Source: a virus
Lineage: Duplodnaviria > Caudoviricetes
IMG/VR virus record: IMGVR_UViG_3300021387_000796
Location: 64,001-128,000 of that record
Length of the DNA: 64,000 nt
Reading direction: 5' to 3' (one strand)
In this document: positions 15,371 through 55,435 of the stretch, piece by piece
How positions within the stretch are numbered: position 1 is the stretch's first letter
Layout of the letters: each line of letters begins with the position of its first letter
The notes under the pieces: model-generated
Database searches by the model: none
What the model was told of the DNA's origin: nothing
What the model saw: only the letters and a program-made list of their open reading frames with translations
Made by a program: the position numbers and the translations under genes

Positions 15371-15433
15371 ATAATTAAAACCTCATTATCATAGTTATTA
15401 AAATAGTTATTCTCTCTCAATAATAATTTTTTC

Positions 15434-15462
15434 TTGACAATGTTTTTAATATTATATATAAT
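15434..15462 (+). promoter_or_regulatory. consensus sigma70 promoter for the invertase
   Basis: TTGACA-N17-TATAAT. Confidence 0.8.
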
Positions 15463-15490
15463 TTGTTATAATTAAAAAAGGAGTTAATAA

Positions 15491-17684: not shown

Positions 17685-17702
17685 TAAATAGGAGAATTTT
17701 TT

Positions 17703-20027: not shown

Positions 20028-21152
20028 ATGGGATTAATTACAAAAGAAGTTGAAATTAAAGTTAGCGGAACATCTTCATATTATGAAAAATTAGGGTATG
20101 ATGTACCAAAGCATAAAGTTAAAATATCAAAAGAACATCCGAATGGATATGCTTTCACTTTAGGAGAAAAATTTACAGTTAAAATTGAAGATTTACCTAA
20201 GTATTCTATTGCAAAAGTTAAAGTTATTTGTGATTGTTGTGGAAAAACAAAAGAAATAGAATATGGTAAATATATGCAAAGTAAATCAGCAAAAGAAAAT
20301 AAATATTATTGTGGAAATTGCGTATCAAAAGTTTATCTGTACGGTAAACATAACAAACGATATTCTTCTTTCAAAGAAGGAAGGTTTAATTTAGAATATA
20401 GAATGATGAAAAGAAATGTATTATCGAGGGATAATTATAAATGTGTTTGTTGTAGAAAAGATTATAAATTAGAAGTTCATCACTTGAACGGATATGATAA
20501 ATTTGAAGATGAAAGATATGATGTTAATAATGCGGTAACTTTATGTAAAAATTGTCATGATAATTTTCATGCTCGTTATGGTAAAGGAAATAATACTAGA
20601 GAACAATTTGAAGAATGGTTTGGTTCTGTCAAAGATATTGTGTCCAAAGAAAGTGTAAATTTAAATCGAGCAAGAGAAATATATTGTTTTGAAACTGATA
20701 AAATTTATGATGGAACATCTGATGTAATATTAAAATTCAGACCTTTAATATCAAAAACTGATAAAAAAGAAATATTAGATATGTGTAATCTCAAGAATAA
20801 TACTTTTTCAGTTAAAGGTTATCATTTTTTATGGAAAGATATTGCAGAAAAATTAACAAAAGATGAAATTGAACAATATATTTTAAATAATTTTAATAAT
20901 CCTAGACGACCTTTCGTTTTAGATTTATCTACATATTTTATTTTTTATAGCGGAATGGATAGAGATAAATATTTCAAAATACCTTTGAAAAGAACAAATT
21001 ATTATACTGCTCGTTACAATACATTTGAAAAAATAATGAATCATGATAAACAATGTGTAATTTATAATACTTTTTTAAATTTTACAAAAGAGCAACAAGA
21101 AACATTATTAAACGGAAACACACCTCGTTTGTATAATAAACTTATATCATAA
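20028..21152 (+). CDS. HNH homing-type endonuclease
   Basis: RDNYKCVCC..LEVHHL..NAVTLCKNCHDNFH; N-terminal CDCCG/YYCGNC zinc motif. Confidence 0.85.
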   Translation: MGLITKEVEIKVSGTSSYYEKLGYDVPKHKVKISKEHPNGYAFTLGEKFTVKIEDLPKYSIAKVKVICDCCGKTKEIEYGKYMQSKSAKENKYYCGNCVSKVYLYGKHNKRYSSFKEGRFNLEYRMMKRNVLSRDNYKCVCCRKDYKLEVHHLNGYDKFEDERYDVNNAVTLCKNCHDNFHARYGKGNNTREQFEEWFGSVKDIVSKESVNLNRAREIYCFETDKIYDGTSDVILKFRPLISKTDKKEILDMCNLKNNTFSVKGYHFLWKDIAEKLTKDEIEQYILNNFNNPRRPFVLDLSTYFIFYSGMDRDKYFKIPLKRTNYYTARYNTFEKIMNHDKQCVIYNTFLNFTKEQQETLLNGNTPRLYNKLIS

Positions 21153-21217: not shown

Positions 21218-22741
21218 ATGGCAGTAAGAATTGCAGATAGTCTTAAACAACAAAATGACTTAACTTCTTTCCCTGTAGCATATGGTTCAGATATATGGTT
21301 GGATAAAAATAAAGGGAGTGGAACTCCAAATTACGATTCAATTCAAAATATGTTGAATAATGACGAATTAGGCGGAGGAGGTTCTTCCATTCAAGTTGAA
21401 GAATTATCAATCGCATCATCTGAAGAAAGTGGTAAAATTTATCAATACATTGGAGTTAGCGGAACATACACAAAAGGATTTTTCTACGAATGTATGAATT
21501 ATGGTTATTATTGTTGGACTATCGATAATGACCGTTATTATACGAAAAGTACAGAAACTAAGGCGGATAAAAATGTATATGTAAAAAATGGCGACCTTTA
21601 TGAAGAAGTTGGTGTTATAGTTGAGGTATTTAATGACACTTTAACATTCGAAGACGATAATGAAAATGAAATAACTTTAGGTCGTTATTCAGATGGTGAT
21701 ATAACAAATGTTGGTTATGAATGGACAAGTATAAATGTTGAAGATGGTACAAGTGTTGTTGATGAGGTTGCTAGAGAAAGAGCATATGAAGCCATAGAGT
21801 TAGCAGAAACTAAATTAAGCAGAGTTACAACAATGCCTACAGACATTCAATATACGACTACGGTACTTTATGTCGGAGAAACTACGAGTAAATATACAAA
21901 AGGTCATATATATCAATGTACTCCTTATGAAAAGACATATTTAACAAGCAAAACTACATCTTCATCAATGAGTTTTGATTTAGATACTTTAGAAGAAATA
22001 AATTTTGACAAGATATTAATAAGTGAAGAATCTTATGATATAAGTGGTTTTACTTGTGATGGTAATGCAGTAAATTTATCTCGTGTTTATTTTAATGAGG
22101 GTGATGAACTTTCAACTATAGTTGCGTCTTATAGTGGTACAAGTTCATTAAAATACATCACTTCAATAGATTGGGAAAATAAAACTTTAGTTTTAGGTTC
22201 TTCAGTTACTTATACTTCTTTTGGCGGTTTCGGTTCAAACAATTTCATGAGTACCTATACGGTATTTGAATGGGTAGATATTTCACCGACTACTACAGTA
22301 GACCAAAGTTATAGTGCTACAAGTACAAATGCACAAAGTGGTGTAGCAGTAGCATCAGCGATATCAAGTGCAACAGAAGATTGTGTCAAGACTAGTGGTG
22401 AGCAAGAAATTGACGGGGATAAAACGTTTAATGATGGAATTTATACCGAACACATTCGTTCTCAAGGTGAGGGATTTAGTGGTGAAGTTAATCTCAGTAC
22501 AGGTTCGAATATAGGACATGTTGAACTTCTAGCGCCTGGTGCCAATACAGATGCCACAATCAAGGCTCAAGGTGGTAATAATAGTGAATCTTATGTAAAC
22601 ATGACTGCTGATTTAGTCAAAGCCAACAATAAGAATGTAGTTACATCTGTAAATAGCACACAAGCCGATAATAGTGGTAATGTAACGCTTTCAATTCCTA
22701 CAATAACGGTTGATGGTAATACGGCAACAATTATCTACTAA
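21218..22741 (+). CDS. tail fibre-like protein
   Basis: VDQSYSATSTNAQSGVAV, GEQEIDGDKTF and VTSVNSTQADNSGNVTL fibre motifs. Confidence 0.65.
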   Translation: MAVRIADSLKQQNDLTSFPVAYGSDIWLDKNKGSGTPNYDSIQNMLNNDELGGGGSSIQVEELSIASSEESGKIYQYIGVSGTYTKGFFYECMNYGYYCWTIDNDRYYTKSTETKADKNVYVKNGDLYEEVGVIVEVFNDTLTFEDDNENEITLGRYSDGDITNVGYEWTSINVEDGTSVVDEVARERAYEAIELAETKLSRVTTMPTDIQYTTTVLYVGETTSKYTKGHIYQCTPYEKTYLTSKTTSSSMSFDLDTLEEINFDKILISEESYDISGFTCDGNAVNLSRVYFNEGDELSTIVASYSGTSSLKYITSIDWENKTLVLGSSVTYTSFGGFGSNNFMSTYTVFEWVDISPTTTVDQSYSATSTNAQSGVAVASAISSATEDCVKTSGEQEIDGDKTFNDGIYTEHIRSQGEGFSGEVNLSTGSNIGHVELLAPGANTDATIKAQGGNNSESYVNMTADLVKANNKNVVTSVNSTQADNSGNVTLSIPTITVDGNTATIIY

Positions 22742-23436: not shown

Positions 23437-24909
23437 ATGGCAAAATGTGATTGGTTTTATTATATTCATCCTTCAATTTGGAATGAAATGAAATTTCATT
23501 TATATCGTGGAATGAATTTGGTTTATAATGGTGAATTACCACAGTATGTGATTGATTTTTGTAATAAAACCGATGTTAATTTGATTCCTTTTTCAGAAAA
23601 GGATATTTATAATTATGAAGAAAGATTTTATAAATTAAAAAAAGAATGGTTACATGACGATGTTGAAAACAACAATTATTCTTTTGAAGTAAATCTCGAT
23701 GATTTATGGAATGAAAGTTGGGATGATATTATAGATGAAAAAACATTATATATCGAATGTAATGTCGATAATATTTGTACAACTTTGTATAACATGAGAG
23801 AATACAAATTTCGTTCTATTCAAAGAGGATGGCTTGAATTAGGTTATAAAATTATCCCTTTGTTTTGGAAAGAATTCATCCCATCACTCAATGAAAGTCA
23901 AATACATTTGGTTGAAAAATTTGATAATATTGCGTTGGCATCAGCATTTGATGTAGATAAATTCGTATGTAGAATTTCTTTATTTCCGAATTCTGTAGAT
24001 GAAATTACGGAAAGAAAATATATACACATTACATCTTCAGATGGTGGAAGACCATTACCATATTATCGTAGGTATTTTTTAAACGACAAACTTAATAAAA
24101 AATGGGGTGATGATTTAGCAACAAACGCTTTCTTGGGGGTAAATACTTCAAAATTGTGTGTAGTTTCACATCCTTCTAATTATATTCCACAATCAGAAAA
24201 AATTTTTTATGATAGAAGTGATAATTGGAAAGGTAGTGGTATGGATAAAGATAGTGAGGATTATATTTTAGAAAAGGCTGATTATATCACATGTTCTTCT
24301 AAGTGGTTGTATAACGATACCTTGAAATATCTTAAAGAAAATAGACCGAACGATGATGTAAAAGTTAAATATATTCCTAATGGTAATGTCATGTTTGATT
24401 ACCCTACTAATGTAGAAAAATTTGAAAAGCCTACGGCTATTTATGTTGGTGCTAGAATAAAGAAAACGGATTTACAATTAATTTATTTGCTTTGTGAAAT
24501 GAATCCTAATTGGAATTTTATGCTTTATGGTGAAGGTGCTAGTGATTTACTTTCAATACCGAGCAATTTATTTGTTCATGAAACTGTTCCAATTGAAGAA
24601 TTGTTTCCGATTATCTGCAAATGTCATGTTGGTCTTATAACATTAAAAGAAAATGAATGGACTGTTGGAATGTTACCTAACAAAGTATTCAATTACATTA
24701 ATGCAAGAATTCCTATTATTTATAGTGGTATCCCTGATATTAACATGGAAGATTATAAAGAATTTTCATATAACATTTCGGACATTTCATCTCTTGATGA
24801 AGTTCTCGAAAATAAGACTACTGCTGAAACATTTGATTCTTATAAAAGAGATTGGTCTACAGTTTGTGATGAAATCATTTCTTGTATAGATGAATTGGAG
24901 AATAATTAA
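23437..24909 (+). CDS. glycosyltransferase (GT-B/GT4-like C-terminal half)
   Basis: ADYITCSS, YIPNG, AIYVG, PNKVFNYINARIPII. Confidence 0.7.
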   Translation: MAKCDWFYYIHPSIWNEMKFHLYRGMNLVYNGELPQYVIDFCNKTDVNLIPFSEKDIYNYEERFYKLKKEWLHDDVENNNYSFEVNLDDLWNESWDDIIDEKTLYIECNVDNICTTLYNMREYKFRSIQRGWLELGYKIIPLFWKEFIPSLNESQIHLVEKFDNIALASAFDVDKFVCRISLFPNSVDEITERKYIHITSSDGGRPLPYYRRYFLNDKLNKKWGDDLATNAFLGVNTSKLCVVSHPSNYIPQSEKIFYDRSDNWKGSGMDKDSEDYILEKADYITCSSKWLYNDTLKYLKENRPNDDVKVKYIPNGNVMFDYPTNVEKFEKPTAIYVGARIKKTDLQLIYLLCEMNPNWNFMLYGEGASDLLSIPSNLFVHETVPIEELFPIICKCHVGLITLKENEWTVGMLPNKVFNYINARIPIIYSGIPDINMEDYKEFSYNISDISSLDEVLENKTTAETFDSYKRDWSTVCDEIISCIDELENN

Positions 24910-25928
24910 TGGGTTTTGTGGATAATATGAATGAACAAAAAATCCCATTCATTGGAGATAAATACAAATATGTTTATACTGGAACAGAATTGAATATCAA
25001 TCGCATTCGTCTCGCTTGGCACATAACAGATTGGTGTAACTATTCTTGTCCGTATTGTATTCAAAGTGTGAATCATCATTATGCTAAAGAACCTAAAGAA
25101 ACTCAAGAATATGTCGAATCTATGGCAAAATTATTAAGACCTAAGTTACACAAACAGAAAGTAACATTGACGCTTTACGGGGGAGAAATATCCACATATT
25201 ATAATCTGAGAAGAATTGTTGAAATTTTATTCAAAGATAATGAATCGGATGCCACAGTAACGTTACTTACTAATTTGTCCGCACCTCTTGAAAAATATAA
25301 AGATTTTATGAATTGTTCTGATAAAAACTTACACATTCGTATTATACCATCTTATCAATGGTCAAATGTTGATGAATTTATAAATAAATGCGTTTTTATA
25401 CGAAAATTTTTAGGAAATGCATTTCAATGTTCATGTGTTGTATTTGATAAGACGACTCTTGAACATCTCAAAGAGGTTGCTGAAAAATTTAGAAAAGCAA
25501 ATATCCCAATTCGTTTTACTCATGGAAGAATGCCAAAAAGTAATAACACATTTTATACTTTACAAGAAGGGGTATCTGATTTTATAATTAATTGGAATAA
25601 AAATGTATTTGAAAAAATAACATGTCATATTACTTATGCTGATGGTACAGAAAAGCCGTGTTTTGCTCGCTCTGATATACTTAAAGAAGTTGCTGATTAC
25701 CAAGGATTTAATGGTGCTTATTTTAAGGATATGATGTGTTTTACAGGACTTAATTTGACACCAAACGGTAATCTCCGTGCAGGAAGTTGTCCTGATAGAA
25801 GTAAATTATATATTGCTAACATTTTTGAAGATAAAGATTTTACATTGAAACCTTATAAGTCGAAATGTGAAGGAAAGGGTTTTTGTAACCTTTGTAATTC
25901 AATTTTAATTTGGAATGGGAAATATTAA
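24909..25928 (+). CDS. radical SAM protein with C-terminal Twitch/SPASM-like cysteines
   Basis: CNYSCPYC, YGGE, TNLS, C-terminal C..GSC..C..CNLC. Confidence 0.88.
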   Translation: MGFVDNMNEQKIPFIGDKYKYVYTGTELNINRIRLAWHITDWCNYSCPYCIQSVNHHYAKEPKETQEYVESMAKLLRPKLHKQKVTLTLYGGEISTYYNLRRIVEILFKDNESDATVTLLTNLSAPLEKYKDFMNCSDKNLHIRIIPSYQWSNVDEFINKCVFIRKFLGNAFQCSCVVFDKTTLEHLKEVAEKFRKANIPIRFTHGRMPKSNNTFYTLQEGVSDFIINWNKNVFEKITCHITYADGTEKPCFARSDILKEVADYQGFNGAYFKDMMCFTGLNLTPNGNLRAGSCPDRSKLYIANIFEDKDFTLKPYKSKCEGKGFCNLCNSILIWNGKY

Positions 25929-26817
25929 TATGCAAATCAAATGGAGATTGTTCAATAATTGTAATTTTCACTGTTCGTATTGTTGTAATAGTGTAATGAA
26001 TAAAGTTCAAAATCCTATTAATTTCGATAGACTTTTACGCATCGCTAAATCTATTCACAATTTGATTGAAAAAGATGAAGATGATGTTTTTGAAGTGAAT
26101 TTGATTGGTGGTGAAATAACTATGTTGCCACTTGAACAAATGAAAGAAATCATTAATACTATTTATTCAAAGAAAATTACTAAATTCCATATTACAAGTA
26201 ATATGTCTGCCAAAGTTGATTATTACATAGCAATAAATGAATTGTGTAATAAATTGAATGTTACATTAAAAATCGTAGGCTCGTTTCATGAAGAGATGAT
26301 GAATTATGATGTTTTTATAAAAAAGGCTAGGATGTTATCTGATAATTTGAAATTATTTATTGCCGAATTTGTGGTTACATCTGAAAATAAAGAAATTTAT
26401 GAAAAAATACAAGAGGATTGTAAAAAATATAATATTGCTTTGATGGTGGATTATAATAGAAAAGAAAAATGGGAAACGAATGATATTGATTATGATAATC
26501 GTAGTATTAAAAATTATCTTCGTATAATATTGAATCCTCAAGGATGCATTTGTAGTAATTCAAAATATATGATAAATGTTTTACCGCATGGCGAAGTTTA
26601 TGGTACAGTTTGTCATAACAGAAAACTTTTAGGTATGATTAACATGATAAAATCATTTCCACATGAAGAATTTATTTGTAAACAAAAAATATGTTCTTTT
26701 TGTGGTAAAATTGAAATAAAAACCCCTCAACAAGAAATTCTTTACTCTAATATAAATAATATCATTGTAAATGAAGATTTGATTAAAAAGCATAATGAGG
26801 AAATAAATGTTATATAA
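25915..26817 (+). CDS. radical SAM protein
   Basis: CNFHCSYC, IGGE, TSN, SFH, C-terminal Cys cluster. Confidence 0.88.
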   Translation: MGNINMQIKWRLFNNCNFHCSYCCNSVMNKVQNPINFDRLLRIAKSIHNLIEKDEDDVFEVNLIGGEITMLPLEQMKEIINTIYSKKITKFHITSNMSAKVDYYIAINELCNKLNVTLKIVGSFHEEMMNYDVFIKKARMLSDNLKLFIAEFVVTSENKEIYEKIQEDCKKYNIALMVDYNRKEKWETNDIDYDNRSIKNYLRIILNPQGCICSNSKYMINVLPHGEVYGTVCHNRKLLGMINMIKSFPHEEFICKQKICSFCGKIEIKTPQQEILYSNINNIIVNEDLIKKHNEEINVI

Positions 26818-27769
26818 ATATGTTCATCCTAGTAGTAACCCACAAATTAATTGTTGGTATATTGATTGGCACATAACAGATTGGTGTAACTATTCTTGTC
26901 CGTATTGTATTCAGACGATAGACCATCATTATGCGAGTCAACCATATGAATCACAAGAATTGGTTGAAAAATATGCAAAATGTATTCGAGAAAAAATTAA
27001 AGGTAGATATATTCATTTGTCATTACATGGTGGAGAAATATCGCAATATGATTTGTTATCCGTTTGTGAAATACTTTTTAAAAATAATAATGTTGTTGGA
27101 ACAGTAAATCTTACAACTAATTTATCAGCACCAATCGAAAAATATATTTCTTTTTGTGAACAAAATTATGGTGATAAAATTAAATTCAAAATAGTGTCAA
27201 GTTATCATTGGACAGATTTGCAAAAATATATTGATAAAGCAAAAATTCTCGCTAAAAATTATAAATCGTTTATGGTTGTTTCAGTAGTTCATGATAAAAT
27301 AACATTAGAACAGATGAAAGTCGTGGCTGAAACTTTTAAGGAAAATAAAATTCCATTTAAATTTACACACGGAAGAATACCAAACGCAAACGGAAAACTT
27401 TATAAAATATCGGACGAATGTTTGGAATATCTTGAAAAAATTAATTCCGAATTTAAAATCGATAATGCTAAATTGATTTATAGCGATGGTACAACGAAAG
27501 TATTTAAAAGTAGGAGTAATTTGTTAAATCAAGTAGCAACTGATTTGAATTTAGATGGTGCTAATTTCAAAGGAATGTATTGTTTTAGCGGTACAATAAT
27601 ATATCCTAGCGGAAAAGTATATTGTGGTAGTTGCCCTGATAGAAAGAAGATGTATAAAGGTTTGATTACTGACGAAAATGTATCTTTATCTCCTACCAAA
27701 GAAATTTGTGGTGGTAAAGGTTTTTGTAATCTTTGCGATTGTATGTTAATTTGGAGTGGCAAATATTGA
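26807..27769 (+). CDS. radical SAM protein (paralog of 24909..25928)
   Basis: CNYSCPYC, HGGE, TTNLS, GSCPDR..KGFCNLC. Confidence 0.88.
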   Translation: MLYKYVHPSSNPQINCWYIDWHITDWCNYSCPYCIQTIDHHYASQPYESQELVEKYAKCIREKIKGRYIHLSLHGGEISQYDLLSVCEILFKNNNVVGTVNLTTNLSAPIEKYISFCEQNYGDKIKFKIVSSYHWTDLQKYIDKAKILAKNYKSFMVVSVVHDKITLEQMKVVAETFKENKIPFKFTHGRIPNANGKLYKISDECLEYLEKINSEFKIDNAKLIYSDGTTKVFKSRSNLLNQVATDLNLDGANFKGMYCFSGTIIYPSGKVYCGSCPDRKKMYKGLITDENVSLSPTKEICGGKGFCNLCDCMLIWSGKY

Positions 27770-28404
27770 TTGTCTTTACAGTAAACCCCTATAACGATGA
27801 TGTTATAAACAGTCCTATACCACAATTCTGTATGAACAGTTGGAAAAAATTAGGATATGAAATTAAAGTATTTGATTATAACAGTGAAGAAGTAAAATAC
27901 GTCAAAGCGGACTGTCATGAACATTTTCAAGGTAAATCAATTTCAATTAAAACAGACGCTATAAGAATGTATATTCTTTCACAATACTCTAATCATTTGT
28001 ATCTTGATTGGGATGTTTATGTTCATAAACCTTTTGAATTAAAAGAAAAATTGATACGACCGTATTTTTGGTCTATTTATAATGCTGACGAATTAAATTA
28101 TTTTAAGGTATTGTATGAACGGTATAAATTAGGATTATTAAAAGATATGTATGACGCAGAAGTGTCTAAAATATTGAATATAAAGGATAATGGTGCTATT
28201 AATGAATTGAATCATCTTTATTCTGCTGATAGACCTTATTATTTGTTTTCGAACAATCAAGACACCGCTACAAAATATGCTCATTCTAAAGTATGTGTAA
28301 TTAATAATGGCGAAAATATTTTACGCAATGCTATAAATATTAAAGGTGATAAAGAATTGTTTGATTTTCTATCATCGTTAAAAAGGATACATGTATATGA
28401 ATAA
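27766..28404 (+). CDS. DXD glycosyltransferase (GT32/Och1-like); TTG start overlapping the upstream stop
   Basis: CMNSWKKL..YEIKVFD, TDAIRMYIL, YLDWDV. Confidence 0.7.
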   Translation: MIVFTVNPYNDDVINSPIPQFCMNSWKKLGYEIKVFDYNSEEVKYVKADCHEHFQGKSISIKTDAIRMYILSQYSNHLYLDWDVYVHKPFELKEKLIRPYFWSIYNADELNYFKVLYERYKLGLLKDMYDAEVSKILNIKDNGAINELNHLYSADRPYYLFSNNQDTATKYAHSKVCVINNGENILRNAINIKGDKELFDFLSSLKRIHVYE

Positions 28405-29512
28405 TACACAATTAATTTCGATGAATGATATTATGGCGATTGAACGACCATATGATAAAAGACCAATATTCAAAATCTCTTGGAAAATGACAGATTTTTG
28501 TCCTTATAGTTGTTCATATTGTTATATGGCTAATGCCGTAGAAAAAGCAAAGAAATGTCAAAATAATCCTACACAGTTTGATGTGGAAGAAATATCAAGC
28601 CGTATTGATGAATTGTTTGAATGTTTAGGAAATAAAAAAGATAGTATTCAGTTACATTTGATTGGTGGAGAACCGTCTATATTTAATCTGATTAAAGTTA
28701 TTGATAAAATCAAAACGCCTAATCTTAAATATTTGAATCTTGCGACAAATCTTTATCGAAATGTGGATTATTATAAAGAATTAAAAAGGTACTGTAACTC
28801 TCGTGGAATCGAATATGGTTCGTCTGCATCATTTCATATAACACAATGTAATCCACAAGAATATGTTGATAAAGTATTGGAGTTAGGCGTTCAGACAAAA
28901 ATAGTTGTCAATAATGAAAACTTAAAATTATATAAGCCTTATCTCGAAATGTTTATGAATAATAATATTTCAATTGAATTAACTGTAGAAAGAAACAGTA
29001 AAAATGAATGTGTGCAATTAACTGATGATAATTTGGATTTTGTTCAAAAAGTAAGAGAATATCAATTCAATCGTAAAATGCAACACAAATCGTATTTACC
29101 ATATTATACAGTTACATTAAGAAATGGTCAGAAGATAAATTACAGTTCAAACATCGCAATGATTAATTCAATCAAAGAAGGTGCGTTGGATACGACTGGA
29201 TTTTACTGTACCGCAGGTCTACACAATGTACGCATTGAAAAAAATGGAAATCTTAAAAGAAGTGCTTGCCGATTGTGTTCTATGTATTTTAAAATGGGTA
29301 ATATTCTAAAAGGCGATTATGAAAAACCAAATGGGGAAATAATCTGTAAGTGTGAAGAAAAAGGTAAAGATGGTATCTTGCAAGAAAAATATTGCACGGC
29401 ATTCAACAATACATCGATGTACAGATTGGGATATAATAGAATTAATGGTATTTATAATGAAAATCATGGAATAAAAATACCAAACTATTGGGAAGAAACC
29501 TACGGACAATAA
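28391..29512 (+). CDS. radical SAM protein
   Basis: CPYSCSYC, IGGEPS, ATNL, ASFH, CTAG..SAC auxiliary cysteines. Confidence 0.88.
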   Translation: MYMNNTQLISMNDIMAIERPYDKRPIFKISWKMTDFCPYSCSYCYMANAVEKAKKCQNNPTQFDVEEISSRIDELFECLGNKKDSIQLHLIGGEPSIFNLIKVIDKIKTPNLKYLNLATNLYRNVDYYKELKRYCNSRGIEYGSSASFHITQCNPQEYVDKVLELGVQTKIVVNNENLKLYKPYLEMFMNNNISIELTVERNSKNECVQLTDDNLDFVQKVREYQFNRKMQHKSYLPYYTVTLRNGQKINYSSNIAMINSIKEGALDTTGFYCTAGLHNVRIEKNGNLKRSACRLCSMYFKMGNILKGDYEKPNGEIICKCEEKGKDGILQEKYCTAFNNTSMYRLGYNRINGIYNENHGIKIPNYWEETYGQ

Positions 29513-29532
29513 AAAAAAACAATTTGTTTTCC

Positions 29533-29561
29533 TTGACATTCTTTTAAATTTAATGTATTAT
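29533..29561 (+). promoter_or_regulatory. sigma70-type promoter
   Basis: TTGACA-N17-TATTAT. Confidence 0.7.
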
Positions 29562-29720
29562 AATGTATATTAAATTTATATGAGGTATTTAATGGTATTG
29601 GCTAATTATATTTTTGATGCAATCTGTGGAATTTTAATTGTCGGAATTCTAGGATTGGTTATTGTCGGTGAATTTTTTCTTATAAAAGAAACTTGGAAAA
29701 AATAAAAAGAGGGGTAAAAA

Positions 29721-31427
29721 TTGAAAGAACTTAGATTGATTGAAGGTTGTATTAAATTTCCAAAAGAATTACCTTATATTGATGAGTATTATACTAACTC
29801 TAACAAATTGAATCTTTCTTATAGAGCGATAAAATGGTTGTTTATGTGGTCAACGTTGGCTGATAAATACAAGAAAGATAAAGTTTATCAGAAAAACTTT
29901 TATACTTCTCTGAAAACCGAACTCAATAAAGAACAGAGAAATTTCAAATTTCCAATTGATTTTGAAAATACACTTAATGAAATGTATCTCATCAAGCAGA
30001 AATACGCAGAAGAAAAGAAAGAGTATAACAAAGAACATCGTAAAGAGATTGCAGAAGAAAATAAAAAATGGAAAGAAGAATACGGCTATGCTTTTGTGGA
30101 TGGTGAAAAGGTAGAAATCGGAAACAGTCTTATCGAAAGTAGTCGTATATTTATTGGTCGTGGAGATTGTTCTTGGAGAGGATTCATTGTAGAAGATGTT
30201 ATGGCTGAAGACATTTCAATCAATTCCTCTTATCCTTTCCCTTGTAATTATCCTACTCATAATTGGAAAGAAGTGTCATTTAAGGATACGATGTCCATTG
30301 CTACATACACAGAACATCTCGTGGGAAATAAAGATGTTACAATTCAAAAGGCTATTTGGTTTTCTAATAAATCATCATTCAAGGCTGATTCTGATGAAGA
30401 AAAATTTGAAAATGCTAGATTGTTGCAAGTAAACATTAAAAAAGTTACTAAAGCAATCAAAGACGCTTTTCTATCTAATGATATTAAAACACGACAGATT
30501 GGTTGTTGTGCCTATATTATAAGTAAATTTGGAATCCGTGCAGGTAACGAAGATAAACGCAACAACGGTGTGGTCGGTGCATCCACTCTTAAAGTAGAAA
30601 ATATTGAATTGTATGTTGACAAACTACAAGTGCATTTGAAGTTTTTGGGTAAAGATTCAATGATGTATGATAATACTCTAAAAGTTGATGCTGATGTTTT
30701 ACTTCCATTGTGGAAATGTATGGACGGTAAGAACTGTAAGGAAAAACTTTTTGATAGAATCACAAGTCATGAAGTAAATGAATTCTTGGGTTCAATTTGC
30801 AAAGATATTCCTCACTTGTCAAACAAGACATTTCGTACATTTTTTGGCACAAGTTTACTTGCAGAAGAAATTCAAAAAAGAGATTGGGATAATTTGACAG
30901 ATAAACAGTTCAAGAATCAATACATGGATTGTGCCAAAGTTGTAACAATTAAACTTAATCACAAGAAAACTCTTACAAAAGAGCAGAATGAAAAGATTAA
31001 TGAATCTACAAAGAAGAAAATCAAATCAGCAAAAGATTCATTTGAAAAGACAAAATCATCTGTAGAAAAGAAATTGAGTAAACTTGAAGGACTTGAATCA
31101 GATTACAAATCTTGTCTTGAGGGAAAGATTCTTAAAAATAAACTTGCAGAAATCAAGGAACAGAAAAACCAACTTAAAGAAAAGTTGAATAATGCTGAAC
31201 AGAAATTTAAAGATACAAAGAAATTAGCAAAGGCTAATTCTGAAAATCGAGAAATTGCCTTGACAACTGCCATGACTAATTACTCTTCACCAAGAGTAGC
31301 GTATTCACTTTGTAAAGAAACAAACCATGAACCTACAACAATCTATTCTAAAGCATTAGTTGAAAGATTTAATGTATGGGCAAGTGATACACCTACTGAT
31401 TATTGGAGAAAGTATCCAAATGTATAA
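29721..31427 (+). CDS. DNA topoisomerase IB, long (eukaryote-like) form
   Basis: Catalytic pentad GIRAGNE, FLGKDS, KTFRT, LNHKK, TNYSSPR; FIGRG cap motif; coiled-coil linker. Confidence 0.9.
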   Translation: MKELRLIEGCIKFPKELPYIDEYYTNSNKLNLSYRAIKWLFMWSTLADKYKKDKVYQKNFYTSLKTELNKEQRNFKFPIDFENTLNEMYLIKQKYAEEKKEYNKEHRKEIAEENKKWKEEYGYAFVDGEKVEIGNSLIESSRIFIGRGDCSWRGFIVEDVMAEDISINSSYPFPCNYPTHNWKEVSFKDTMSIATYTEHLVGNKDVTIQKAIWFSNKSSFKADSDEEKFENARLLQVNIKKVTKAIKDAFLSNDIKTRQIGCCAYIISKFGIRAGNEDKRNNGVVGASTLKVENIELYVDKLQVHLKFLGKDSMMYDNTLKVDADVLLPLWKCMDGKNCKEKLFDRITSHEVNEFLGSICKDIPHLSNKTFRTFFGTSLLAEEIQKRDWDNLTDKQFKNQYMDCAKVVTIKLNHKKTLTKEQNEKINESTKKKIKSAKDSFEKTKSSVEKKLSKLEGLESDYKSCLEGKILKNKLAEIKEQKNQLKEKLNNAEQKFKDTKKLAKANSENREIALTTAMTNYSSPRVAYSLCKETNHEPTTIYSKALVERFNVWASDTPTDYWRKYPNV

Positions 31428-31637
31428 ATATGTGGTGATGTGTTTTAATGAAACGAATAAAGCGTTTCATTTTTTAGTAGAATCGGCTGATGGATATTGT
31501 GCTGAAATAGAAGTCAGAAAAAGATTTCCGAATTATAAAATAAGTCAAGTTATCAGACTTGAAGAACTGAAATAATTATCTGAACATATACACAAAATAT
31601 ATTCAGATAAAAAATATAAAATTTGGAGGAATAAAAT

Positions 31638-32045
31638 ATGATTAAATTAAGAATTGGAAAAGAAGAAGTTGTTTATTCGGATGACGATTTGTTGGTAATG
31701 ACAAGAGACCAACTTAAACAGTTGAAACAAGATTTACAGTGTAATATGGAAGAAGTTTCTGCTAAAAGAGCAAGATATCAAGCAGAAAACAACGAAAAGT
31801 ATAATTCAAAAGAATACTTTACACAGATTGCCAAGTATAAAACCGTTATGGCAAATCTTAAACGAGCAATTGCTAAAGTAAATACTTATGAAATCGATGT
31901 TAAAGAAAATGATTTGAAAGACCGAGAACATTGGCTATGGTCATTTTATGTTAATGTAAAACATAATATTGACAAAAATGAATTTGAAAAACTTGTGAAT
32001 ATGACTGATAACAAAGCAAAATATCACATTGAAATCGGAGAATAA
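31638..32045 (+). CDS. hypothetical coiled-coil protein
   Basis: GGAGG RBS. Confidence 0.65.
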   Translation: MIKLRIGKEEVVYSDDDLLVMTRDQLKQLKQDLQCNMEEVSAKRARYQAENNEKYNSKEYFTQIAKYKTVMANLKRAIAKVNTYEIDVKENDLKDREHWLWSFYVNVKHNIDKNEFEKLVNMTDNKAKYHIEIGE

Positions 32046-32502
32046 AATGACAACATCGAAACATATTACCCCTTATGAAGATTTGGCTATAGAAAATGCT
32101 AATAGAAACACTTTGAAACAATTGGCTTGTGCAATTCTATTATCTGCGGTGGAAGATGCGGATGTGGAATTTTTGACAGATGATTACGAAGAGTGGAAAT
32201 ACTACAGAGAAAAAAGAAAAAAGAAGAGTGATTTTTTTACTGAAATCGATTATCAAATTGGTTTTAAGAAAAAACAAGAATATAAAGAAGTTTTGTTTGA
32301 TATTTGTGAAATCACGGTACGTTCCTCTGATATTCCTAGCAATGTTCTTGAAGAAAGAAGGATGTATGAAAGAAACAAAATGAAAAATCTTATGAAACTC
32401 ACTGGTTTTAAGAAAGAAACATTAATGAATATAGCAAAATTACATGGTTGGAAAATCGGCATTGATTATACAGAACCAAGTATGTTTGATGATAATTTTT
32501 AA
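32029..32502 (+). CDS. hypothetical protein (start probably 32047)
   Basis: ORF in operon with GGAG RBS. Confidence 0.6.
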   Translation: MKSENKMTTSKHITPYEDLAIENANRNTLKQLACAILLSAVEDADVEFLTDDYEEWKYYREKRKKKSDFFTEIDYQIGFKKKQEYKEVLFDICEITVRSSDIPSNVLEERRMYERNKMKNLMKLTGFKKETLMNIAKLHGWKIGIDYTEPSMFDDNF

Positions 32503-32514
32503 TGGAGAATAAGA

Positions 32515-33237
32515 ATGATTAAGATACTAGAAAAGCGTACAGAAAAAGACCCTCTTAATCACATTGGTGAAAATGCAGGTATCTGTTGGGGAGCAGATAT
32601 TTCCAATGAAGAGAAAAACATCAAACGTGGAAAATCTTGTATGAAAAGTGGTCACATGCGATGTGCTGAATATCCTACTGTAGAAATGATTTTGGATGAA
32701 TTTTCAGCGAGGGTAATTCGAGAAACATATACTCATATTATTGGTGTAACTAGACTTCAAGAATCGACAAGATATGTGAATTGTGCTGATTTTGGTTATT
32801 ATACACCAAATGGAATCACAGAAGGGCAGAAAGAAGTGTATGATGATATTATGAAAGAAATCATGAAATCTTATGAAACTCTTTTGGATTTGGGAATGAG
32901 TAAAGAAGATACTGCTAATATTCTTCCACTTGGAATGAATACAAAAATTGTATGGAAGATTAATCTACGTGCTTTGATTCATTTTATGAATATGCGAATG
33001 TGTAATCGAGCATATAAGGAAATCAGACAACTTTGTAAGGAAATTAAAGATTTACTTTCAAATTATTCTGATGAATGGAAATGGATTTCAGACAATTATT
33101 TTGTTCCGAATTGTAAAATGATTGGTTATTGTATGGAAGAAAAATGTTGTGGTCTTATGCCAAAAGGTTTGGATGGTTTGAAAGAAAAGATTATCAAAGA
33201 ATATCTTGATTCTCAAGATAATGATAATTTGAAATAA
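32515..33237 (+). CDS. thyX: flavin-dependent thymidylate synthase
   Basis: GH..CAEY, degenerate ThyX motif RETYTH..RLQESTRY, KEDTANILP, NLRALIHFMNMRMC..AYKEIR. Confidence 0.88.
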   Translation: MIKILEKRTEKDPLNHIGENAGICWGADISNEEKNIKRGKSCMKSGHMRCAEYPTVEMILDEFSARVIRETYTHIIGVTRLQESTRYVNCADFGYYTPNGITEGQKEVYDDIMKEIMKSYETLLDLGMSKEDTANILPLGMNTKIVWKINLRALIHFMNMRMCNRAYKEIRQLCKEIKDLLSNYSDEWKWISDNYFVPNCKMIGYCMEEKCCGLMPKGLDGLKEKIIKEYLDSQDNDNLK

Positions 33238-33267
33238 AATTTCTTGCAAATTAAATAAAAAATTGAT

Positions 33268-33957
33268 ATGATATATTCAAGGAGAAAAATATTGAAAAAA
33301 TACGAAGATGTGTACAATGAAGGTTTTATTAAAAATAATATTCTTCAAGTTCGAGAGAATAATAACAGAAAAGAAGTTGATTTTTATTTAATCAATGTAA
33401 TCGAAGATATAGAAGATTATATTGATTTTTTACGAGAAGTCGATTCATGTCGAGACGGTGATTTAATTACAATTCATGTTAATTGTTATGGTGGTAATTG
33501 CGATGTGGCTATGAACATATATGATTGTTTGAAATTGTCACCTGCGGAAGTGATGATTTCAATTGAGGGTGCTTGTTGTTCATGTGCATCGATGATTATG
33601 CTTGCTGGTAATTATTGGAAAGTTTACCCTCATTCTTATGTTATGATTCATGCTTGGTCCGAAGGTATCTATGGAAAATGGCACGAAATCATTTCCAAAT
33701 TTAATTACGATAAAAGTATATTTGAAAAACAATTTAAAGAACTTTACAAAAACTTTTTGAATGATTATGAAATAGAAGATTGTATTAAAGGAAAAGATTT
33801 TTATTTTGATTCTTCTGAAACAATAAAAAGATTGAATGTTTATCAAGAAGAAGATGTTAAATGTGATGAGGCTATTAAAAAAATCACTGATAAATATTCT
33901 TCTCTTGCAGAAAAAGAAGTAAATCAATACTTAAAAAAAGTATCTAAGAAAAAATAA
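33268..33957 (+). CDS. ClpP-like serine protease
   Basis: HVNCYGG, GACCSCASMI (Ser), VMIH (His), DFYF. Confidence 0.8.
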   Translation: MIYSRRKILKKYEDVYNEGFIKNNILQVRENNNRKEVDFYLINVIEDIEDYIDFLREVDSCRDGDLITIHVNCYGGNCDVAMNIYDCLKLSPAEVMISIEGACCSCASMIMLAGNYWKVYPHSYVMIHAWSEGIYGKWHEIISKFNYDKSIFEKQFKELYKNFLNDYEIEDCIKGKDFYFDSSETIKRLNVYQEEDVKCDEAIKKITDKYSSLAEKEVNQYLKKVSKKK

Positions 33958-33992
33958 AACTTTTCAAACATCATTATAATAGGAGAAAACTA

Positions 33993-36900
33993 ATGAAAAT
34001 GACAATTACAAAACTTAATGATTGGGTTAGAAAACTTGCTGAAACTAAACCATACCGCATTATGGTAAAGAATGGTGCAGGATTTTATGAAGTTCTTTTC
34101 TTGTATGGTGATTATCATTACAACGATAGACTGTATATGCAAGATATGGACGATGAATTGAATTGTCAGAAGAAAGTTTTGGCAATGTGTTCTACATTTG
34201 AACATAATTTCAAATTGAGGACTTTTTAATCTATGGAAAGAAAGATAGAATATTATGAAGAAGAAGGAATTGCTGATTATGTAGAACATCTTTCAAATTC
34301 ATCTATGGAAGAATGTATTGAATCTTGGCGAGATAATTTGGATGAAAAAATCGATTATCCTTGTGAAATTGTAGTGTATGGCTATGCTGAAAAGAACAAA
34401 GATACTTTTATTCCTAATGGCAAAGAAATTTTAGATGATGTTTTTGACGACTTGTATGATGACGGATATATCGATGATTACGGAAATTACGATGAAGATT
34501 TAATAAAATGTTCAAATTTACTTTCCGAATCGATTAAAGAAAATGTTCCGCCTTATTATGAAGCAGTTAAAAAATACACTGTGAAAGTGAATGAAGATTC
34601 ATTTGAAATTATTAAAGAAGGAGATTTTGAATAATGAAAAACAACTTCACATTTAACGCATCTATTAAAATAAAAGATTTAGATAAAATGGAAAAGGTTT
34701 TAAATTTGCTGACACAAGAAGGAGTTAAAAACAAGGATTCTGAAATTTGTGTTGCGTTTAAAAATTTGTTAAATCATTTTGACGATATACCTAAAATAAA
34801 AATGTATGACTTGGTTGATGCGTTTGCCGATTTTTATGAAGAGTTTCTTTATCCTTATTGTAAAGAAACGATTGGTTGTAAAAGATTTGAAGAATTTGAT
34901 TTCGAACAAGTACAATATGTTATGGACAAAATGAAAGAAATAATTTATACTCTCAGTGGACAGTATGGATTATAAAAATAATAAGGAGTTTATATGAAAA
35001 AAGAAATGTTTAACCTTTGGTACAATGAATATGGTAGAGGACTTGCAATTGATGCCCTTCCTATCGATGATGTGGATGAAAAAGAAATTCGAAGAAAAGC
35101 AAAAGAAATTTTTTCATACACATATGATATTTTTTCAGAATTTATGTGTGATAGACTTGCTCCGTTATATGACCATATCGTTTGTCAAAACGATGTGATA
35201 AATGAAATGCATAAAGAAATCTGTATGAGAAAAAAGGATGCAGAAACAATTCGTGACGAAATAACACCTCATATGACAAAATTGTATGATTCGTATTATA
35301 AAGAAAAATCCATCGATAAAGAACAATTTCACTCACTTAAAAAGTATTTTGGTGAAATTCTTTCCGATGCTAAAGAAAAGATTAATGCTTGTGATGTAAC
35401 GCTTTCTATTTTGAAACGTGAAAAGAAGTATGTTGAAAGTCTTTTGGTAACAGAATAAAAAAATAATTGTGTTGAAACTTGATAAGATTGTCGATAATAA
35501 ATTATAGACAATTTTATCAAGGAGTATTATATGAAGAAATTATTTGTAATCTTAGGTTTATTTGTTTGTAGTGTTTCTGCCTTTGCTATGGATTGGTCAG
35601 AGTATGAAATGATGTGTTTCATAAACAATAAAGAACCTAATTACGAAGAATGGGAATATCTTTGTACGGAAGGTGCAACGGATTATGGATATGATGGGTT
35701 TGATTTAGAAAATTTTCTAATCGAAAATGAAAAATAAAAGGATTGTTTTATGAAAAATTTAATAATCGATGGTTGGAATTTATTTAGTTATGATGGTATT
35801 CCTAATGATACGGAAGATAAAAAAACCGTAGCGGTTAAACAACTTGGTAATAACTGTGCAGAAATCATGTTGGATGTAAAAACTATGAGTTTTGAATTTG
35901 TAAAAAACGGAAATAATTTTTCACCAATAAGATGTAATAGATTTTCAACTTGTCTTAAAATGGCTGACGAATGGTTTAGAATTTTGGAGGAATAACGTGG
36001 GTGAAAATAAAAGTGGTAGTGGTGGAAGTTTTTTAGCAAGTTTGATTTTCGTAGTTTTTCTTGTAATGAAACTTACTGAAAAATGTGCTTTTTGGGGTGA
36101 TAATTTTCCTAGATTCTTGAAAAGTACAGAAGCGTGGTGGGATGGATGGTTTATGGTGTTTTTGCCATTATGGATTGGTTTACCAACGGTGTTGATTATT
36201 TTGTTGATTGGACTTATATTTATTAGGAATAAATAAAAATAATTCCATTACTGTAGTCTTGTAACTACAAAGGAGGGTAACACTATCTCAAAATGGACAA
36301 GTAAATGTGATTTCTGCGATGATTGTGAAATGATACACAATCCACAAGAAATCATTGAAAAATCAAAAATTTATTTGGGTGACGCAAGAGTAATGATAAA
36401 GGAAGAAAAAGATTTGATTCCTTATTATACTCATTTAGTTGCATCAGCATGTTACAACAAAGAAAGTGGTAACGTAATTCATCTATCAAGAGATTCTTTC
36501 ATTAATTCAGAAGAAAGAGAATTTCTTGCTTGGAAAATTCGTGATGTAATTGGTGCATTCAGAAAAGCAAAGAAAGAGAATGTTGAAGTTACGCTAGATT
36601 ATCTTAAATCAAAAAAGTATTATTTAGATAATACCGAGAAATTTATTTGGTTAGCATTGATTGATAAAATAAAACATAACACTGATTTGATTAAAGTTCA
36701 TCTTCCTAAAGATTATAGAGAATGTTCTTATTTTATCAGTGAATGGCTGATACCAAATTACTTTAATGATATTCATGATTCTATACACAATCGACAAAGA
36801 GAAGAGTTTATAAAGTTTGCTCAAGAAAACGGATACAGAAATTTTGAAGATGGGATTTATCATCCTATTATTTGGAAAATGTGTGCTGATATAAATGAAT

Positions 36901-37513
36901 ATTATAAAATGAAAGAAAAATATGGAGGTAATGTATGATTTATCCAAACGGTACTATTGAATTGAATAAACTAAAAAGAATGGTCAATTCTAAAGATTTT
37001 ATTGTATATTATGAAGAAAACACAAAAGAACCTACTAATTGGGATTGGAGAAAAGATGGTATTTTTCATGGAAACAAATATCCTATTCATAATGAAGAAG
37101 AACTAATTTCTTGCATTAGCAAAGAATTAAAAAATGAAGGAACAATTTGCTATGATGTTACAGAAGAATACTACAGAAAACATCCTTGTGAGGGTGAAGA
37201 AGTAATCTATGTTAAACCTAAGTTCTTTTGGGAGTGGCAGTCGCACAATACAAAGAAATGTTATTCCATTGAAGAATCATCTTATCTTGGTGAAAAACCG
37301 AAGAATGTTCCTTTATCGCTGAACTTGTTTGATGATAATTTTGAAGGAACTTGTTTTGTAATTGGAACGTGGGAAAGAGATAATGAAGGTTACGAATTCC
37401 GTTCTGTTGGCTCAAGAATGTTCGATTATGTTGATGATGAAGATTTGAGTGAAATTTGGAAGGCGATTAAAAACGCTGACAAATATTTGAACGATAGATT
37501 TCTGACAGAATAA
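33993..37513 (+). CDS. run of small hypothetical genes (33993, 34233, 34634, 34994, 35531 signal-peptide protein, 35750, 35997 membrane protein, 36330, 36935)
   Basis: Tightly packed ORFs with RBSs; no recognisable domains. Confidence 0.55.
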
Positions 37514-39314: not shown

Positions 39315-40301
39315 ATGGCAAAAATAGCAATAATTTTCAATACTTCACAGAATAAAAACACATATCGTTATGAAATAGACCAACTTAAAGTTGTAGATTG
39401 GAATGATGTGTTGGGTTGTTGTTTGTGGAATAGCAAATTGAAAGACCAAGATATGAGTTTTTATGTAGGAATGCCTGCTTATGAAGTTTACGAGGATATC
39501 AAAAAATATGCTGAAAAAGAATTATGGTCTGATGTTTGGAAAATCGGTAAACCTTTTTCCGCAAAAGTTGTAAAGGCTTCAACAATCGAAGAATATGCTG
39601 AATGTGCAATTAAATCTTATATGCATACTCTTAATTATAACAATCTTTGTTGTGTAATTGCCAATGGAAAAGCAAAAGATATAATGCAGAGAATTTCCAA
39701 TTTAATTAATGACAAGGATAACTTTGATAGCGGTTATAATATAAGAAGAATTTGTATGTTTGGAAATAATGATAAAACAATCAGATATACAGATTCAAGA
39801 GAAAAATTAACATTCATTCCTTGTAACGATTCTTATGCTTATTATAATATGGAAGATTATTATGATAAACTTGGTTTTGAAGTATGGGATGATTATAAAT
39901 TATATGAAGGTAAAAAGGAGAATAAAACTATGAAAAAGAACAGAATGACAGAAAGATTTGACGCACCAAAAGATTGGGATTTTGAAGATATGCTAGATGA
40001 TTATGGAATGGAATATCTTCAAGAAAATGATTCGGACAATGAACCTATCGATATGGATAGTTTCGATGAATTTTTAGATAGTCCTTGGGAAGCAGTAAGA
40101 AGTGCTTTTTATGGAGGAAGATTTGGGTTTGATAGAGATTCTTTTAATCCAACAGACCCATATTTTAGATTCAATGGTTATGGTAATGTTGAAAGTATTC
40201 CATATCTAGATGATTATCTTAAAGATATGATTGATGAAGAATCATTTTATGATTGGTGTGTGGAACAAGGTTATTTTGAATCTGATGAAGATAACGAATA
40301 A
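39315..40301 (+). CDS. two-module hypothetical protein with acidic C-terminal module
   Basis: Internal GGAG plus ATG near 39930; FNPTDPYFRFNGYGNVES. Confidence 0.7.
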   Translation: MAKIAIIFNTSQNKNTYRYEIDQLKVVDWNDVLGCCLWNSKLKDQDMSFYVGMPAYEVYEDIKKYAEKELWSDVWKIGKPFSAKVVKASTIEEYAECAIKSYMHTLNYNNLCCVIANGKAKDIMQRISNLINDKDNFDSGYNIRRICMFGNNDKTIRYTDSREKLTFIPCNDSYAYYNMEDYYDKLGFEVWDDYKLYEGKKENKTMKKNRMTERFDAPKDWDFEDMLDDYGMEYLQENDSDNEPIDMDSFDEFLDSPWEAVRSAFYGGRFGFDRDSFNPTDPYFRFNGYGNVESIPYLDDYLKDMIDEESFYDWCVEQGYFESDEDNE

Positions 40302-40339
40302 TAAAATTATCTGATGTACTAGAGTACAAACAGTTTCTG

Positions 40340-40380
40340 AGAGCGGAAAGTTGAAATATTACTTCCGCTCTTTGTTTTTT
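40340..40380 (+). terminator. intrinsic terminator
   Basis: AGAGCGGAA...TTCCGCTCT followed by T tract. Confidence 0.75.
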
Positions 40381-40455
40381 ATAACGTTTATATTCCTAGA
40401 CATTTTGAATAATTTTGTCTAAAAATATAAACATTATAATTTTTAATAATTTTCG

Positions 40456-40484
40456 TTGACAAATGAAATAGGAATGTGTATAAT
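40456..40484 (+). promoter_or_regulatory. consensus sigma70 promoter
   Basis: TTGACA-N17-TATAAT. Confidence 0.8.
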
Positions 40485-54129: not shown

Positions 54130-54329
54130 AATAAAAAATTACAAAGGAAATTTGGAATAAAAAAGGAGTAAAATAAAATGAATCCAACAATTTGTAATAT
54201 GACACTAGAAGAAAGATTGAAATGGCAACTTGAAGAAGAAAAAGAACTTCATGAAATTGAAAGAGAATTGCTCATTCATCAGATTGAGGTTCTTAAAGAA
54301 AAACTTGCTCGTAAATAAGGAGTAAAATT

Positions 54330-54933: not shown

Positions 54934-54938
54934 TTAAA

Positions 54939-55246: not shown

Positions 55247-55435
55247 AAAAGGAAAATAGATTATGATAATTTTTATCAAACATAAAGACGGACGTGCGGA
55301 AAGTTATAAAATAAAAGATTTCACCATGGTGGATTCTACAATCCGTATAGTAACAGAAGACAAAATTTTATATTTAGATTATTTTGATATTGAAGATATG
55401 CAAATAATTAATTCTTAAAAAGGAGAATAATAATT

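Follow-up and report, generated by a model that had tools for sequence, protein, structure and literature searches.

Type IB DNA topoisomerases (TopIB) have been described in a short and a long form. Bacteria, poxviruses and mimiviruses are credited with the short form (PMC4824112, PMC8748870). The long form is placed in eukaryotes and, as regards prokaryotes, is considered confined to Thaumarchaeota-related archaea (PMC4824112, PMC2621148, PMC8748870). From where the long form occurs, it has been argued that the archaeal-eukaryal ancestor already had a Top1 (PMC2621148). In jumbo phages, Iyer et al. 2021 described a 'phage-specific' topoisomerase I, present in PaBG, Motura, phiRSL1, Lu11 and NCTB (PMC7824862). 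A literature search, with subscription-only papers outside its scope, found no paper on TopIB in jumbo, huge or mega phages or on the long form in tailed phages, and the jumbo-phage reviews and gut jumbo-phage surveys mentioned topoisomerases just generically. We describe here a gene found at positions 29721-31427 of a 64,000-nucleotide stretch of viral DNA (the window), which corresponds to bases 64001-128000 of a linear, metagenome-assembled IMG/VR virus record of 218,066 bp (IMGVR_UViG_3300021387_000796). It is very likely that this gene encodes a genuine, probably active long-form TopIB of a jumbo tailed phage from the ruminant gut, which would most likely act as a swivel for replication and transcription.

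The initial annotation, made from the sequence, had described an enzyme of 568 amino acids (aa) with the complete R-K-R-H-Y pentad, a cap segment and a coiled-coil linker separating LNHKK from the tyrosine domain. All of these elements were found in the open reading frame (ORF), whose parts are the following:

29721-31427, plus strand: gene for a long-form type IB DNA topoisomerase (568 aa, TTG start, TAA stop)
29793-30329, plus strand: cap or DNA-binding fragment (core subdomains I-II), residues 25-203, Topoisom_I_N
30372-31058, plus strand: catalytic core, residues 218-446, holding R273, K311, R372 and H414, Topoisom_I
30978-31244, plus strand: linker made of two long antiparallel helices, residues 420-465 and 468-508, from the AlphaFold2 model
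31200-31403, plus strand: C-terminal domain, residues 494-561, with the catalytic Y521, Topo_C_assoc

Three Pfam models cover the protein, each above its curated cut-off. The profile of the eukaryotic cap domain Topoisom_I_N (PF02919), proposed earlier as a check, gave 89.9 bits against a cut-off of 25 (E 2.2e-25), where residues 25-203 align with positions 28-207 of the 213 in the profile. Topoisom_I (PF01028) reached 160.8 bits (cut-off 23.7, E 4.5e-47; residues 218-446 on profile positions 2-226 of 228) and Topo_C_assoc (PF14370) 49.9 bits (cut-off 25.1, E 2.9e-13; residues 494-561). A six-frame search of the whole genome with Topoisom_I returned the same TopIB match, and a Deinococcus control genome was also matched. 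The motifs quoted in the initial annotation are all present, with YGYAFVDGEKVEIGN...RIFIGRG at residues 121-148, GIRAGNE at 271-277, VGASTLKVE at 285-293, LNHKK at 412-416 and NYSSPR containing Y521. The pentad R273/K311/R372/H414/Y521 aligns with R488/K532/R590/H632/Y723 of human Top1, and alignments of 29 and 54 homologues show no variation at these positions.

The proposed likeness to nuclear Top1 and to the archaeal enzymes was borne out by sequence and structure comparisons. When the protein was compared with the sequences of the Protein Data Bank (PDB) by phmmer, human Top1 was the best match (E 8e-50) in a single stretch of residues 17-558 that includes the linker, followed by Caldiarchaeum TOP1 (2.6e-46) and then by the large subunit of Leishmania. 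Vaccinia and variola TopIB reached just 1e-5 over about 108 residues, and Deinococcus TopIB 0.015. Modelling with AlphaFold2 from the 54-sequence alignment gave a pLDDT of 93 and a pTM of 0.81; between the catalytic histidine and tyrosine the model places the helices 420-465 and 468-508, where most pLDDT values exceed 90. Foldseek aligned this model with 1k4t_A (E 3.9e-32, TM 0.77/0.77 over 584 columns; range for 1k4t and 1rrj, TM 0.76-0.77), the superposition taking in both the cap and the two-helix linker, whereas the short TopIBs of variola and Deinococcus spanned about 230 columns with a TM of about 0.3. The long-form Top1 identity and the linker are real, far beyond chance. Purifying selection on the gene is also evident, because its nonsynonymous divergence (dN) from the copy of a related phage contig, L012, is 0.13-0.18 while synonymous divergence (dS) is saturated.

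Among the closest described counterparts is the Topo70 form of human Top1 (PDB 1K4T, 1A36, 1RRJ), which shares the cap, the core, the coiled-coil linker, the C-terminal tyrosine domain and the pentad. With about 27% identity, an end-to-end E of about 1e-49 and a TM of 0.77, the phage protein is the equivalent of human residues ~215-765 and comes without the charged N-terminal domain and the nuclear localisation region. The spacing from His to Tyr is 107 residues in the phage enzyme (106-107 in most of its clade, described below), compared with 91 in human Top1 and with 65-79, shorter than in the phage, in two rows of archaeal origin, of which one bears the name Nitrososphaeraceae; a linker of 53 aa has been reported for the archaeal CsTOP1 (PMC4824112). 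The long TopIBs of archaea (CsTOP1 of Caldiarchaeum subterraneum, PDB 6Z01, and those of Thaumarchaeota and Bathyarchaeota) are likewise compact, at about 540-600 aa; they lack the eukaryotic N-terminus and share the domains and the pentad. They are chromosomal, a hallmark of their lineage, and form a clade of their own (100/100), whereas the present enzyme is viral. A further difference concerns the hinge tyrosine (human Y426), which according to the alignment is an alanine in the phage TopIB, varies in the phage clades and is a tyrosine in 4 of 4 archaeal rows. Takahashi et al. 2022 tie this residue to clamp closure (PMC8748870).

The initial annotation had also suggested that the enzyme might be camptothecin-sensitive. 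The residues that contact the drug are kept (F144, G146, R147, D312, T516 and N520, equivalent to human F361, G363, R364, D533, T718 and N722). Yet camptothecin sensitivity of the phage TopIB cannot be inferred from its sequence, since CsTOP1 is camptothecin-resistant and sensitivity depends on the dynamics of the linker and C-terminal part (PMC4824112, PMC8748870).

Two described classes were rejected as a home for the enzyme. The short TopIBs (vaccinia/variola, 2H7F; Deinococcus, 2F4Q) share the catalytic fold and the pentad chemistry. They measure about 310-350 aa, their N-terminal domain is small and unrelated, and a linker is absent, in contrast to the 568 aa of the phage protein with its eukaryote-type cap and linker. 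As the initial annotation had held, the phage enzyme is not of the short bacterial or poxviral type: its cap is present, and it does not group with the short TopIBs, which match its catalytic part only. The topoisomerase I of the PaBG/Motura type resembles the query in being of the TopIB type with a tyrosine-recombinase fold, in size (about 540-560 aa) and in being encoded by jumbo phages. Its matches in BFVD were partial and weak, with TM of 0.42 and 0.38 at 12% and 17% identity. Because of these weak TM values and the lack of a tblastn match, the PaBG/Motura enzymes are not of the eukaryote-type architecture of cap, linker and C-terminal domain.

The record that carries the gene has a completeness of 92% according to CheckV. 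Its GC content is 29%, evenly 27-33% along the window, with no N, a coding density of 89% and long blocks of genes on the same strand. PHROG scans identified a tail sheath (phrog_23) and a baseplate wedge (phrog_219, 8.6e-41) on the same record. Replication and recombination genes recognised with PHROG or Pfam comprise a DNA polymerase, a clamp loader, a DnaB-like helicase, a second DNA helicase, a Dda-like helicase, a UvsX-like recombinase, an ATP-dependent ligase, an exonuclease and SbcC, and RtcB and GroEL are also found. The record further encodes NrdD (with an intein-like insert), ThyX, ClpP and many HNH and homing endonucleases, and TopIB lies in a block of nucleotide-metabolism and replication genes. 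The carrier is a jumbo tailed phage, myovirus-like, whose replication and recombination genes are of the T4 type. Many large ORFs of the record had no PHROG or Pfam match.

Could the record be an assembly artefact or a misclassified replicon, that is, a chimera, or else a piece of a cellular genome or the genome of a giant virus or of a virus of archaea? It is linear and metagenome-assembled, and no terminase, capsid protein or host was recognised for it. We nevertheless regard this explanation as extremely improbable. The composition is even, the coding density and strand blocks are phage-like, and the tail sheath, the baseplate wedge and the T4-like replication set stand beside a GroEL and a DnaB of bacterial type; no markers of nucleocytoplasmic large DNA viruses (NCLDV) were seen, and the NCLDV contexts of TopIB that were sampled look different, with an mRNA capping enzyme. 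Moreover, independent assemblies bridge the locus. The 5-kb stretch around TopIB occurs in public sequencing runs of about 12 studies, mostly of sheep and bovine gut but also of bioreactors (no RNA runs were listed among them). From other studies, a sheep-gut contig of 9,182 bp spans window positions 26884-36064 with 52 differences, and a contig of 19,234 bp from a bovine run spans all of 24000-37000.

The gene order around TopIB is also kept in related phages. Its anchors in the window are the following:

10018-12345, minus strand: NrdD anaerobic ribonucleotide reductase, upstream synteny anchor, interrupted by a PT-HINT match at residues 492-560
32515-33237, plus strand: ThyX thymidylate synthase, downstream synteny anchor (PF02511, 4e-39)
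33268-33957, plus strand: ClpP-like protease, downstream synteny anchor (PF00574, 1e-13)

Two IMG/VR phage contigs of 160 kb and 135 kb (L012 and L013) have TopIB with the same downstream genes. In a third contig of 155 kb (L014), TopIB is just 42% identical, and the order NrdD (with intein), large ORF, TopIB, two ORFs, ThyX, ClpP is retained, the NrdD of L014 likewise carrying an intein. The contig is therefore not chimeric, since independent sheep and bovine assemblies bridge both TopIB junctions and synteny is kept at 42% identity; the initial annotation had named chimerism as the finding that would speak against its proposal. Within this phage lineage, TopIB is inherited as a stable component.

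Three elements lie upstream of TopIB:

29533-29561, plus strand: promoter-like site TTGACA, 17 nt, TATTAT, intergenic, upstream of the TopIB unit (sigma-70-like pattern)
29580-29705, plus strand: small hydrophobic ORF of 41 aa between the promoter-like site and TopIB, read from the sequence
29709-29714, plus strand: Shine-Dalgarno-like GAGGGG, 6 nt before the TTG start of TopIB, read from the sequence

The promoter-like site matches the sigma-70 consensus at 11 of 12 positions, the top score of the region. As the total number of promoter-like sites was not above the shuffled expectation, the site is a hint only. The TopIB gene of L012 (77-81% identical) has ATG where the window gene has TTG. 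A bacterial host is likely, because GroEL and DnaB are of bacterial type, the sigma-70-like promoter is near-consensus and the Shine-Dalgarno site is strong. The nearest cellular relatives of the phage GroEL are all bacterial.

Relatives of the enzyme were numerous among metagenomic proteins. An exhaustive HMMER search of 1.84 billion representatives gave 1,323 matches, 276 of them below 1e-30. A word-indexed search found relatives graded from 95% down to 25% identity, all with the three-domain architecture, and a profile search with the alignment recovered the same unlabelled protein set. Of the clusters of clade V and group B (see below) that were looked up, none bore the name of an organism. 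Two pattern scans of 185,579 GTDB species genomes, their reach limited to the patterns used, found no relative. Among the 50,697 GenBank phage records of INPHARED, neither tblastn with the protein (at 1e-5) nor megablast with 20 kb gave a match.

Three unrooted trees (a FastTree of 182 rows, an IQ-TREE of 115 rows and a careful IQ-TREE of 70 rows using LG+C20 PMSF, with ultrafast bootstrap/SH-aLRT support) gave the same picture. The query falls in a clade, clade V, supported at 100/98 in the 70-row tree. Clade V comprises 64 representatives at 50% clustering, all compact (489-603 aa). The archaeal clade (100/100) contains proteins named Bathyarchaeota and Nitrososphaeraceae, and the clade of long proteins, taken as eukaryotic (100/99), includes one fungal protein and has giant-virus copies nested inside. 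Small compact groups, group B and P0092, are also found on the other side of the tree from clade V. The unrooted backbone reads clade V, P0148, group B, P0092, (archaea, eukaryotes + NCLDV). The split of clade V and group B from P0092, archaea and eukaryotes is supported at 97/70, that of archaea and eukaryotes alone from all phage-context sequences at 91/71, and midpoint rooting would set clade V against all the others.

Sampling of clade V, group B and P0092 gave 11 distinct genomic contexts, all of them phage-like. They include the loci L014, L015, L016 (a 442-kb contig), L019, L020 and L021 for clade V, L017, L018 and L024 for group B, and L023 for P0092; several are IMG/VR viral records, and dense small ORFs without Pfam matches are typical. 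Genes seen among them encode UvsY, UvsW, a gp44-like clamp loader, RNaseH, RecA, ligase and tubulin, as well as a baseplate Gp10 domain, a head-fibre domain, SAM lyase, SLT, OmpA and ribosomal protein S21. In group B phages, TopIB sits within T4-type replication modules beside UvsY, UvsW, RNaseH, RecA and ligase. On one group B contig, a T4-like IMG/VR phage contig of 119 kb, a tubulin-family gene (L018:8887-9927) lies immediately upstream of TopIB. Clade V is a large, diverse and apparently undescribed phage-borne lineage outside the archaeal and eukaryote + NCLDV clades. The phage lineage of the long form postulated in the initial annotation is supported by these data, and extended from one gene to a clade.

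These trees also bear on the idea that the phage recently captured a Top1 gene from a rumen eukaryote (a ciliate or a fungus), a giant virus or a TopIB-bearing archaeon, the gene being a mere passenger. The rumen is rich in low-GC protists, and the giant viruses show that such captures happen: their long TopIBs are nested in the eukaryote clade, and metagenomic giant viruses were the sole full-length viral matches in BFVD. These giant-virus enzymes (Marseillevirus LCMAC101/202, Dasosvirus; the GVMAG contig L026) are virus-encoded long forms like the present one and match it over their full length with TM of 0.73-0.76. Those placed inside the eukaryote clade include L025 and L026 (from IMG/VR), L032 and P0096; at L025, L026 and L032 they are compact, with 560-610 aa, and L032, like the contig of P0096, has an mRNA capping enzyme on the same contig as the TopIB gene. 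In contrast, the phage clade lies outside the eukaryote clade, and both the realm of the virus and the domain of the host differ. Clade V is set apart from eukaryotes + NCLDV (100/99) and from archaea (100/100) and is as diverse as either of these; synteny is kept across phages whose TopIBs are just 42% identical, and the nearest eukaryote-like or archaeal sequences are about 30% identical to the query. Recent capture is for these reasons very unlikely. Judging from the supported branches, the diversity and the synteny of clade V, the TopIB gene is not a recent acquisition from a sampled eukaryote, giant virus or archaeon.

We infer activity and biological role, as distinct from the architecture, catalytic residues, fold, phage context and clade membership observed above. 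By homology to human Top1, the cap and the core would clamp duplex DNA and Y521 would attack one strand, with the assistance of R273, K311, R372 and H414, to form a 3'-phosphotyrosyl link. The free downstream duplex would then swivel under the drag of the linker and the cap, after which the nick would be resealed. The enzyme is predicted to relax positive as well as negative supercoils without ATP. Most likely, TopIB would be the phage's own swivel for replication and transcription of its 218-kb genome. This role is proposed because no other topoisomerase was detected, the Pfam models of Topo IIA (DNA_topoisoIV), GyrB and Topo IA having no match in the record, because the gene lies in the nucleotide-metabolism/replication block and because of the replication modules of group B.

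Alternatively, TopIB might have a more specialised role, as an enzyme packaged in the virion and delivered together with the DNA, in recombination or concatemer processing, or in making the phage independent of a host gyrase or Topo IV that is inhibited or degraded. Poxviruses package their TopIB (cited in PMC4824112), and the phage gene is tightly coupled to a small conserved ORF downstream:

31420-31575, plus strand: ORF of 51 aa, its ATG overlapping the TopIB stop by 8 nt, conserved 3' of TopIB in L012 and L013 by translation comparison

Its counterpart at L012:12779-12952 (about 51-57 aa) has the same 8-nt overlap with the TopIB stop. That the small ORF starts 8 nt before the TopIB stop in both phages suggests translational coupling of the two genes. 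Most of the other phage loci also have a small ORF, apparently of unrelated kind, that adjoins or overlaps TopIB at its 3' end. However, the gene lies in the replication/nucleotide-metabolism block, away from the structural genes, the protein bears no portal fusion or head-targeting tag, and in group B TopIB is part of T4-type replication modules (UvsY, UvsW, RNaseH, RecA, ligase). We therefore judge a specialised role unlikely and favour a general swivel for replication and transcription.

Several points weigh against the reading of the gene as the phage's active replication and transcription swivel. The record is about 92% complete, and another topoisomerase may be encoded in what is missing or may have diverged too far for the Pfam models. 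A Terminase_6N search of the record had no match, and no major capsid protein was recognised; the endolysin families Amidase_2, Amidase_3 and GH25 had no match either, and the nearest cellular relatives of GroEL are scattered bacteria at 42-44% identity, which point to no specific host. Most tree rows are unlabelled metagenomic proteins, for which the label 'phage' comes from the sampled contexts and the label 'eukaryote' from length, one fungal name and NCLDV contexts. Finally, because the hinge tyrosine is an alanine in the phage TopIB, opening and closing of the clamp may differ from what is known for the human and archaeal enzymes.

The TopIB gene of the window is unsplit, unlike that of L012 and L013 (IMG/VR contigs 3300028886_001681 and 3300032007_000033), where it is in two pieces (L012:10001-12786, identical in L013). 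The break falls between residues 363 and 369, just before the arginine equivalent to R590, and the insert of about 1.1 kb holds an ORF for a GIY-YIG endonuclease of 314 aa (L012:11178-12122). A 10-nt direct repeat, AAATTGACGA, flanks the insert, and removal of the cassette with one repeat copy from L012 restores an in-frame TopIB with a longer loop. A group I intron was rejected as the nature of the insert, no Rfam match being found at E up to 1; a free-standing endonuclease cassette is preferred. As both halves, one of 394 aa and one C-terminal, are open and conserved, TopIB may function in two pieces in these phages. The heterodimeric TopIB of kinetoplastids (Leishmania, PDB 2B9S) is a precedent for a long form made of two polypeptides, but its chain is interrupted before the tyrosine domain, whereas in L012/L013 the GIY-YIG cassette caused a break between the equivalents of K532 and R590.

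Other features of the genome are recorded here as observations in their own right. Four consecutive genes with radical-SAM domains precede TopIB on the plus strand (24909-25928, 25915-26817, 26807-27769 and 28391-29512), and an ORF of 223 aa lies with them directly upstream of TopIB, within 24909-29512 (plus strand). The block that begins at about 15.5 kb and includes these genes is absent from the syntenic L014 locus. The radical-SAM block may be a modification or biosynthesis cassette. Large ORFs (952, 401, 708, 507 and 490 aa) without any Pfam or PHROG match occupy 12512-15370 (minus strand) and 16479-19829, 21218-22741 and 23437-24909 (plus strand). The large HNH/homing-endonuclease family phrog_559/681/4605 has at least four paralogues scattered through the genome, at positions 14179-15507, 40254-42335, 54161-55495 and 197712-199301, and more HNH genes lie inside the window at 20028-21152. 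Outside the window, at genome positions ~152,239-153,542, a cluster of five tRNA genes comprises Gln-TTG, Arg-TCT, Leu-TAA, Leu-CAA and an Asn tRNA with the unusual anticodon ATT.

The initial annotation had considered the gene relevant to the origins of TopIB, and the position of the phage clade outside the archaeal and eukaryote + NCLDV clades indeed bears on the source of eukaryotic Top1. The phage lineages are arranged on the unrooted backbone as a comb (clade V, P0148, group B, P0092), at the end of which archaea and eukaryotes share one branch. One could read this as a viral origin of Top1, the cellular enzymes having arisen from within phage diversity, much as a viral origin has been proposed for eukaryotic Topo IIA (PMC9752973). 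We consider such an origin doubtful; in the absence of an outgroup, a rooting with the phages as a single sister clade of the cellular enzymes is just as compatible with the tree.

What would be surprising to specialists is the distribution of the enzyme, its chemistry being ordinary. As compact Top1 enzymes that naturally have no N-terminus, with a longer linker and a different hinge, the phage proteins would suit mechanistic studies of how the clamp opens, of controlled rotation and of camptothecin sensitivity. With a third lineage, deep, diverse and borne by huge phages, the data behind the argument for Top1 in the archaeal-eukaryal ancestor are altered, and the direction of transfer, from virus to cell or from cell to virus, becomes testable by a rooted phylogeny. 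The carriers of the clade are probably bacterial viruses of the gut and other anaerobic habitats. Some jumbo phages would thus use an ATP-independent, eukaryote-type swivel in place of a T4-type topoisomerase II.

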